54,525 nt of DNA from a virus: the UHGV virus genome UHGV-0179380. One strand, written 5' to 3'. The position numbers and the translations under genes are program-made. This document shows positions 1 through 1,595 of this stretch, piece by piece (position 1 is the stretch's first letter; the number at the start of each line of letters is the position of its first letter). The notes beneath the pieces were generated by a model. It searched no databases. It saw only the letters and a program-made list of their open reading frames with translations, and was not told where the DNA came from.

Positions 1-1446
1 ATGAGTATGTCATCCATACCGTCGTCCTCCCAATCCGGGAAGCTCTATGGCTGGGTCGAAAGAATTGGTAACAAGGTTCCCCATCCTTTTTTGCTCTTTA
101 TCTATTTGATAATCGTACTCATGGTGACGACGGCAATTTTGTCAGCCTTTGGCGTCAGTGCGAAAAACCCGACCGATGGTACGCCGGTGGTGGTGAAAAA
201 CCTGCTCAGTGTAGAAGGATTACACTGGTTTTTACCCAATGTGATTAAAAACTTTAGCGGTTTTGCTCCACTTGGAGCGATCCTGGCGCTGGTTTTAGGT
301 GCCGGCCTAGCGGAGCGCGTCGGCTTACTGCCAGCGCTAATGGTTAAAATGGCATCGCATGTTAATGCCCGCTACGCCAGTTATATGGTGCTGTTTATTG
401 CTTTTTTCAGCCACATTTCTTCCGATGCGGCGTTAGTGATCATGCCACCGATGGGTGCGCTGATTTTTCTGGCGGTGGGCAGGCATCCAGTTGCAGGTTT
501 ACTGGCCGCCATTGCAGGCGTAGGTTGCGGCTTCACGGCTAATTTACTGATTGTCACAACCGACGTGTTGCTGTCGGGGATCAGCACGGAAGCGGCGGCT
601 GCGTTCAATCCGCAAATGCACGTCAGTGTAATTGATAACTGGTATTTTATGGCCAGCTCCGTAGTCGTACTGACGATTGTTGGCGGCCTGATAACCGACA
701 AAATCATCGAGCCACGGTTAGGTCAATGGCAGGGAAACAGCGATGAGAAACTGCAGACATTGACCGAAAGTCAGCGTTTTGGTTTACGCATAGCAGGTGT
801 CGTATCGCTACTTTTTATTGCTGCGATCGCGCTGATGGTGATCCCGGAAAACGGGATATTGCGCGATCCGATTAATCACACCGTGATGCCATCACCCTTT
901 ATTAAAGGTATCGTGCCACTGATCATTCTTTTTTTCTTTGTTGTCTCGCTGGCTTATGGCATCGCTACCCGCACAATTCGACGTCAGGCGGATTTACCGC
1001 ATTTAATGATTGAACCGATGAAAGAGATGGCGGGATTTATCGTGATGGTTTTTCCCCTAGCCCAGTTTGTCGCCATGTTTAACTGGAGCAACATGGGGAA
1101 ATTCATCGCCGTGGGGCTGACCGATATACTTGAAAGTTCAGGGCTTAGCGGCATCCCGGCGTTTGTCGGTCTGGCGTTGCTTTCCTCTTTCTTATGCATG
1201 TTTATTGCCAGCGGTTCCGCAATCTGGTCGATTCTGGCCCCCATTTTCGTACCAATGTTTATGCTACTTGGCTTTCACCCGGCATTTGCGCAAATCCTCT
1301 TTCGTATTGCCGACTCATCCGTATTGCCTTTAGCGCCGGTATCTCCTTTTGTTCCACTATTTCTTGGATTCCTGCAACGCTACAAACCAGACGCGAAACT
1401 GGGTACTTACTATTCGTTAGTCTTGCCCTATCCGCTTATCTTTTGA
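1..1446 (+). CDS. abgT: AbgT-family transporter (p-aminobenzoyl-glutamate transporter-like), possibly altered at C-terminus
   Basis: 481-aa polytopic membrane protein starting at window base 1 (MSMSSIPSSSQSGKLYGWVERIGNKVPHPF...); recalled AbgT N-terminus; host-like composition. Confidence 0.75.
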   Translation: MSMSSIPSSSQSGKLYGWVERIGNKVPHPFLLFIYLIIVLMVTTAILSAFGVSAKNPTDGTPVVVKNLLSVEGLHWFLPNVIKNFSGFAPLGAILALVLGAGLAERVGLLPALMVKMASHVNARYASYMVLFIAFFSHISSDAALVIMPPMGALIFLAVGRHPVAGLLAAIAGVGCGFTANLLIVTTDVLLSGISTEAAAAFNPQMHVSVIDNWYFMASSVVVLTIVGGLITDKIIEPRLGQWQGNSDEKLQTLTESQRFGLRIAGVVSLLFIAAIALMVIPENGILRDPINHTVMPSPFIKGIVPLIILFFFVVSLAYGIATRTIRRQADLPHLMIEPMKEMAGFIVMVFPLAQFVAMFNWSNMGKFIAVGLTDILESSGLSGIPAFVGLALLSSFLCMFIASGSAIWSILAPIFVPMFMLLGFHPAFAQILFRIADSSVLPLAPVSPFVPLFLGFLQRYKPDAKLGTYYSLVLPYPLIF

Positions 1447-1533
1447 ATGGATAACTTAATGAAAAATTCATTTGTATTCAATGTGTTATGCTTTGTTTTT
1501 GTTTTTGATTTATCATTTTGGTCACTATTTGGT

Positions 1534-1566
1534 ACACAAAAAGAAACGAGGCGTTAGCCTCGTTTC
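1534..1566 (-). terminator. rho-independent terminator after tail fiber gene
   Basis: stem gaaacgaggc/gcctcgtttc with gtta loop followed on minus strand by T-run (plus acacaaaaa). Confidence 0.7.
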
Positions 1567-1595
1567 GCGCGGCGATGTTCTTCGCACATCACCTC

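Follow-up and report, generated by a model that had tools for sequence, protein, structure and literature searches.

An mEpimmI-group prophage in the 3′ end of Escherichia coli abgT, with an attachment core that overlaps the ogt promoter

Introduction

Phage 21 and the e14 element, both found in icd, and the phages that integrate in tRNA genes insert at the 3′ end of a gene and carry with them a replacement 3′ end. Within the mEpimmI group, phages with a type II integrase integrate at the 3′-terminal region of abgT, and the abgT lysogens described are 09-0049, UMNK88, RM9245, GN05505, GN04592, E21845, 190, 127 and MLI107 (Front Microbiol 2025, PMC11893012). The promoter of the DNA-repair gene ogt has a −10 element TATCTT, a −35 element TGGCTG and two NarL 7-2-7 sites at −44.5 (NarL II) and −77.5 (NarL I). 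Nitrate induction requires both sites, and NarL I is overlapped by a Fis site; mutating NarL I alone, in the ogt102 fragment, lost the induction of the wild-type promoter, whereas a single improved NarL site can suffice in engineered ogt promoters (PMC7419079).

Here we describe a junction between abgT and prophage DNA in UHGV virus genome UHGV-0179380, a stretch of 54,525 nucleotides analysed as a whole and referred to below as the window. We consider it highly probable (about 0.93) that a temperate mEpimmI-group phage of 53.3 kb, apparently complete (mEp021-like, with a type II integrase, nearest to MagusPhagus and mEp010), inserted into E. coli abgT at its 3′ end by tyrosine-integrase recombination. 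The integration is a further instance of the published site, and in that sense an already known event, since PMC11893012 gives both the abgT 3′ end and the same lysogens, which we also recovered independently in our genome search.

Results

An open reading frame of 481 codons, closed by a TGA stop, starts with its ATG at the first base of the window (Table 1). Its product matches the Pfam ABG_transport profile (PF03806) from position 1 to position 476 out of 502, with E = 2.6e-197 and a score of 656 bits (cut-off 27), which places it in the AbgT family, as a preliminary description of this DNA had proposed. Intact abgT, taken from the prophage-free E. coli WCHEC035125 (locus L001:3001-4527), is 1527 nt long and encodes 508 aa, the length given in that description, and ogt starts 10 nt beyond it. 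Alignment of the two proteins revealed 481/481 identical residues over the first 481 positions of canonical AbgT and zero foreign residues, with nucleotide identity ending at 1444. The frame is not full-length, then, yet the atypical terminal stretch which had been noted does not exist: the ORF is simply 27 residues short. The suspected C-terminal alteration of the transporter holds in that the C-terminus is truncated, and fails in that no atypical sequence replaces it.

The 27 further codons, present in intact abgT across thousands of genomes, encode LVVWLLMLLAWYLVGLPIGPGIYPRLS. AbgT residues 482-503 align with the C-terminal hydrophobic stretch of MtrF (4R1I), and likewise of YdaH (4R0C), and the transport domain of MtrF extends to residue 516, TM9 included (PMC4621753). 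By these alignments, the loss removes half to most of TM9, the last transmembrane helix of the transport domain, and the window ORF lacks the complete AbgT fold of nine transmembrane helices and two hairpins, which includes this C-terminal TM9. The same abgT allele in strain 09-00049 is annotated by PGAP as a pseudogene, 'missing C-terminus'. Judging from its sequence, the shortened transporter probably does not function; some activity could survive the loss of half of TM9.

The stop itself is a product of the junction. Where the window has TGA, intact abgT has TTG, the codon for Leu482, and the attP sequences of MagusPhagus and mEp010 both read ...CTTTT|GAATGG at the boundary between core and P′ arm. 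The phage provides no replacement 3′ end for abgT, and the frame stops right at the first phage base.

Table 1. Features of the window, with coordinates counted from its first nucleotide.
Feature	Position	Strand	Remarks
abgT, prophage-truncated	1..1446	+	codons 1-481 of 508, then TGA arising at the junction
NarL I, 7-2-7, TACTTACTATTCGTTA	1404..1419	+	−85 to −70; remains at attL, ~53 kb from ogt
att core TATCCGCTTATCTTTT, attL copy	1429..1444		16 bp, inside the abgT ORF; −60 to −45 of the ogt promoter
NarL II position	1437..1452	+	at attL, left half-site is core and right half is phage; intact copy at attR
Junction-made stop, TGA	1444..1446	+	T is a core base, GA are phage bases
Phage P′ arm of attL	1445..1595		AT-rich; 2 mismatches in 151 bases to the MagusPhagus stretch from core to tail-fibre gene
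mEpimmI-group prophage	1445..54525		53,081 bases in the window; 53,348 bp from 1445 through the end of the attR core
GGATAAC, candidate core-type integrase site	1449..1455		right half of a 7-bp inverted repeat
Candidate arm-type integrase sites, TTTGGTCAC-TA-TTTGGTACACA	1517..1538	+	22-mer; direct repeat in the reconstructed attP
Intrinsic-terminator-like hairpin and T-run	1543..1566	-	just downstream of the tail-fibre gene
Tail-fibre gene, 897 aa	1596..4289	-	C-terminal Peptidase_S74 chaperone domain; last phage gene before attL
Q-like gene	35724-36452
Repressor-like gene	45715-46362
Tyrosine integrase gene, residues 36-399	53431..54525	-	window ends inside the gene

We searched 5426 complete E. 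coli genomes by megablast with window positions 1-1700, of which 4925 were matched. The match ended at base 1444 in all listed abgT-carrying genomes but one, such that identity to the host stops exactly there across thousands of genomes with intact abgT. The 16 bp that end at this base, TATCCGCTTATCTTTT, are common to attB (L001), attL (the window and L002), attR (09-00049, L003; MLI107, L004; and the contig L011 described below) and attP (the free phage MagusPhagus, PP925836.1, L007), and the bases flanking them differ on both sides between the att sites. The free phage carries the uncut arrangement of P arm, core and P′ arm, the junction of abgT with the P′ arm is present in 12 independent complete E. 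coli genomes, and the window holds a single copy of the core. Neither the fixed end of identity at 1444 nor the recurrence of the junction is a chance effect. No host bases were lost, as nt 1-1444 and 1429-1527 together rebuild abgT with a 16-bp duplication.

This comparison of attB, attL, attR and attP bears out the earlier proposal that a prophage was inserted in the 3′ end of abgT, and moves the attachment site from where it had been placed: the core lies inside the ORF, and 1447-1595, previously taken as the likely att junction, is P′ arm. The suggested search for a repeat of 1447-1595 at the other prophage end finds again only the 22-bp arm-type repeat at 1517-1538, and would miss the core at 1429-1444.

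An intact, naturally short abgT allele, with the prophage confined to the intergenic space downstream, would likewise show an ORF uninterrupted to a normal stop with 481 canonical residues. It would not account for the 27 more codons found elsewhere, for the 83 nt found past the prophage and adjoining ogt, or for Pfam coverage ending at 476/502, and the attB/attL/attR comparison refutes it; we give this explanation a practically negligible probability.

Several side observations concern the core. In mEp010, the attP core is TACCTACTTATCTTTT (L008/L009 junction), with 3/16 mismatches to attB, all in the left half, and only CTTATCTTTT shared. This position of the mismatches suggests that the strands are exchanged towards the right of the 16-bp core. 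An attB polymorphism, TATCCACT versus TATCCGCT, appears in the promoter alignment of the PMC7419079 supplement. In E. coli MS 57-2 (L012, ~440-460), a deletion that matches the '~10 bp deletion' promoter variant of PMC7419079 takes away 9 bp at the left of the att core, and strains with a deletion of this type may offer this phage no usable attB. Scans of the entire window for Rfam families and tRNAs gave no hits, so we rejected an att site of the tRNA or tmRNA type.

Beyond the core, the AT-rich segment previously noted after the ORF is recovered as the P′ arm: GC content is 36.4% over 1445-1595 and 24.5% over 1445-1542, compared with 49.2% in abgT. Read from the attP sequences, the core is bracketed by GTTATCC-N15-GGATAAC. 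The 22-bp element TTTGGTCACTATTTGGTACACA (1517-1538) recurs in direct orientation beside the int start codon in the P arm and is kept in mEp010 with one change, and the P arm also carries five ACGATRKRA repeats. From their sequence and placement, we infer that these repeats act as arm-type or core-type sites (or as Xis or IHF sites). The tail-fibre terminator of the preliminary description was likewise found, as a hairpin and T-run on the minus strand (1566-1543), and mEp010 has an annotated Rho-independent terminator (T19) at the corresponding place just past its own tail-fibre gene. In the relatives, this gene is annotated as tail-fibre protein.

At the other end, the window stops short of the first 35 int codons, the P arm and attR, and searching it for the missing 3′ end of abgT or a second core copy found none. 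By exact-protein look-up we located ENA contig ERZ1034943 NODE_16 (L011), which is identical to window 46605-54525 at 7921/7921 positions and extends beyond; attR is deduced from this identical contig and from relatives, not from the window. In window-equivalent coordinates, the int ATG lies at 54630, followed by a 146-bp P arm and by the second core at 54777-54792, which begins 252 bp past the window end. After this core come the missing 83 nt of abgT, then ogt, fnr and uspE. The contig also has one base change right after the ogt −35 hexamer in attR (L011 8204, TGGCTGT versus TGGCTGC in K-12-like strains).

The full integrase encoded on the contig has the domains Arm-DNA-bind_3 (PF13356), Phage_int_M (PF22022) and Phage_integrase (PF00589), and its translation contains the motifs GCRTSE, HDLRRT, LGH and AIYDQY. 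Of the 5426 complete E. coli genomes searched, 13 have the same int and attR arm. Ten of these bear an annotated abgT fragment where the match lies, which places it at the 3′ end of abgT, and ogt comes next in the two that we inspected. The locus therefore shows a core shared by attP and attB, duplication of that core as a direct repeat, and an integrase with a catalytic domain beside the att site, all of which are expected of site-specific integration.

An unrelated deletion or illegitimate insertion, for instance mediated by an IS, with the apparent att site a coincidence, would have precedent in that abgT is inactivated in other ways, by IS1203 in EDL933 and by abgRABT replacement in ~500 genomes. 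It is refuted by the presence of the same 16 bp in the attP of a free phage; moreover, no host base was lost, the 16 bp are duplicated, the junction is identical in about 12 genomes, and an arm-binding tyrosine integrase lies beside attR. We regard such an origin as very improbable, and site-specific integration remains our reading of the junction.

Two further observations concern other genomes. In EDL933 (E. coli O157:H7; L014, 401-3240), abgT is separately inactivated by a mid-gene IS1203, and abgT thus seems to have been lost repeatedly through different routes. MLI107 (H88) has a standard attR; on the attL side, its match with the window begins only at 1497, and the junction next to abgT is read as rearranged or deleted in this strain. 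A footnote to Table 2 of PMC11893012 mentions an insertion site with a deletion of ~7000 bp, and the main text does not name the strain.

We compared both halves of the prophage with described phages. The left, structural half is 94% identical to MagusPhagus over 93%, and 85-87% identical to mEp010, mEp013 and mEp044 at 77-84% coverage. The right half, int gene included, matches mEp010, mEp044 and mEp013 at 86-87% identity and 79-88% coverage, whilst the type I phages mEp021, mEp515 and mEp554 match all but the int region. Identity of the integrase is 99% to MagusPhagus, 91% to mEp010 and 50% to type Ib (strain 2-331). Genome-wide similarity, a type II integrase sequence and integration at the abgT 3′ end all assign the prophage to the mEpimmI type II subgroup. 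Of the genes that may bear on the group's phenotypes, Nus-dependent growth and a shared immunity (immunity group I), a repressor-like and a Q-like gene were seen. By gene content it looks complete, because J, tape measure, capsid, portal, large terminase, Q-like, repressor, O-like and DnaB modules are all present. The J-like gene (4746-9311, minus strand) contains a 216-nt tandem repeat at 5869-6331, with 2.1 copies and a 74% match; its product has repeated segments resembling 'RIDKAIADE..ART.AISGVNASISTL' and a long C-terminal half rich in alanine, serine and threonine.

The ogt promoter sits inside the 3′ end of abgT, with the −35 element at nt 1453-1458, the −10 element at nt 1477-1482 and +1 at nt 1489. 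Under this numbering, the published mutant bases C−83, T−72, T−50 and G−39 fit the sequence (C−83 is abgT nt 1406 and T−72 is nt 1417), and the two best 7-2-7 matches in the region are 1404-1419, the best, and 1437-1452. The sequence elements of the NarL-activated ogt promoter (Squire et al. 2009; Ruanto et al. 2020, PMC7419079) are thus present at their published positions, mapping base-for-base within abgT nt 1404-1489. The boundary between host and phage at 1444|1445 is the exact centre of NarL II, and attR retains everything from −60 downstream: NarL II, the −35 and −10 elements, and ogt. In a lysogen, unlike in the published promoter, the two NarL sites stand on opposite sides of a 53-kb prophage, an arrangement not considered in PMC7419079.

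We scanned the phage arms for elements that might stand in for those removed. A crude scan of the P arm for a surrogate NarL 7-2-7 site had none of its best matches at −77.5 or −67.5; these matches scored no higher than 9/14 and were at other positions. In the attR arm, a crude and simple scan found neither a terminator nor a σ70-like promoter able to drive ogt, and a scan of the attL region returned only terminator-like sites. On the basis of plasmid promoter-mutant data in K-12, the sequence predicts that lysogens lose NarL-dependent nitrate induction of ogt, because induction in ogt102 was abolished when NarL I alone was mutated, and the P arm is without a comparable site. Compensating activity could come from the phage DNA that now lies above −60.

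About 500 of the 5426 complete genomes gave no abgT match. In four other genomes that we inspected, two of them from row-step sampling (loci including L010 5001-5149 and L013 401-549, in 14EC020 and S1-IND-01-B), abgRABT is replaced by an AraC/HlyD/MFS cluster and abgT nt 1379-1527 are kept, a segment that spans the entire ogt promoter and its two NarL sites. That genomes devoid of abgRABT keep both sites suggests that the upstream one is maintained. Fragment matches of 66 nt ending at 1444 (H26-H30) were considered as a second type of insertion at the same site and rejected: these matches stop at 1444 because the query becomes phage DNA there, and those genomes are devoid of abgRABT but keep nt 1379-1527.

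Discussion

We propose that the tyrosine integrase recombined attP with the identical 16-bp TATCCGCTTATCTTTT at abgT nt 1429-1444. In the resulting attL, abgT nt 1-1444 run into the P′ arm of the phage; attR, as read from the identical contig, holds the int start codon, the 146-bp P arm and the core, with the last 83 nt of abgT and then ogt behind them. The junction stop after codon 481 costs AbgT 27 residues. NarL I, with the Fis site that overlaps it according to PMC7419079, would be left at attL, and NarL II, the −35 and −10 elements and ogt would be found at attR. As integration at −60 to −45 splits NarL I from the promoter, ogt would lose NarL/nitrate induction, and whatever transcription might read through from the abg operon, for as long as the phage stayed integrated.

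Whether lysogeny then amounts to a regulatory lesion or switch, in which NarL I and Fis are split from ogt, repair is uncoupled from nitrate, abgT is inactivated, and both are restored by precise excision, is a question on which we would place roughly even odds. Integration might instead be neutral, with the truncated AbgT still working and ogt regulated normally through NarL II and the core promoter or through phage DNA. abgT is considered a cryptic gene in K-12, and the core duplication preserves the promoter from −60 downstream (NarL II, −35 and −10), both in line with neutrality. So are the engineered ogt promoters that work with a single improved NarL site (PMC7419079). However, mutation of NarL I alone abolished induction of the wild-type promoter (ogt102, PMC7419079), the P arm offers no 7-2-7-like replacement, half of TM9, a part of the transport domain, is deleted, and the genomes devoid of abgRABT keep nt 1379-1527 with both NarL sites. 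We therefore view neutral integration as rather unlikely.

For annotation, abgT is best treated as a pseudogene, attL as 1429-1444, and the prophage as running from 1445 to ~252 bp past the window end. This is a routine genome feature, comprising a known phage group, a known site, and a pseudogenised and probably dispensable transporter. Its wider interest is that the att core overlaps the well-studied ogt promoter, which NarL and Fis control. If the regulatory reading is true, a prophage alters the regulation of a host DNA-repair gene by splitting tandem activator sites, and mutation rates during nitrate respiration could shift once O6-alkylguanine repair no longer follows nitrate signals. 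We found no earlier report of the overlap that the sequence indicates: the main text of PMC11893012 mentions neither ogt nor the truncation of the transporter, and a literature search linking abgT, ogt and prophage gave an unrelated genome announcement and nothing relevant.

Among described phages, mEp010, mEp013 and mEp044 share with the window prophage both genome architecture and the abgT 3′ locus. Within this type II subgroup, the window prophage is a distinct variant whose nearest match is MagusPhagus, and the core of mEp010 differs from it at 3 of 16 positions. Type I mEpimmI prophages (mEp021, strain 2-331) belong to the same group, have the same integrase orientation and a P′ arm that is ~85% identical, but possess another core and target the 5′ region of dgcM (ydaM), ~7 kb away (PMC11893012). 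Those we located sit between ynaN/zntB and dgcM (L005 3001-3195; L006 5144-6526), and the likeness of their P′ arm starts exactly at window 1445 (window 1445-1640). Arms that are conserved whilst core and target differ are consistent with specificity switching within one integrase lineage.

More broadly, the window phage resembles the lambda/P4 style of attP in its short core, its AT-rich arms with direct repeats, the position of int beside att and an integrase with arm-binding, central and catalytic domains, the repeats being candidate arm-type, Xis or IHF sites. With phage 21, e14 and the tRNA-gene integrators it shares the kind of target, the last few dozen bases of a gene; unlike them, it brings no replacement 3′ end and so no surrogate C-terminus.
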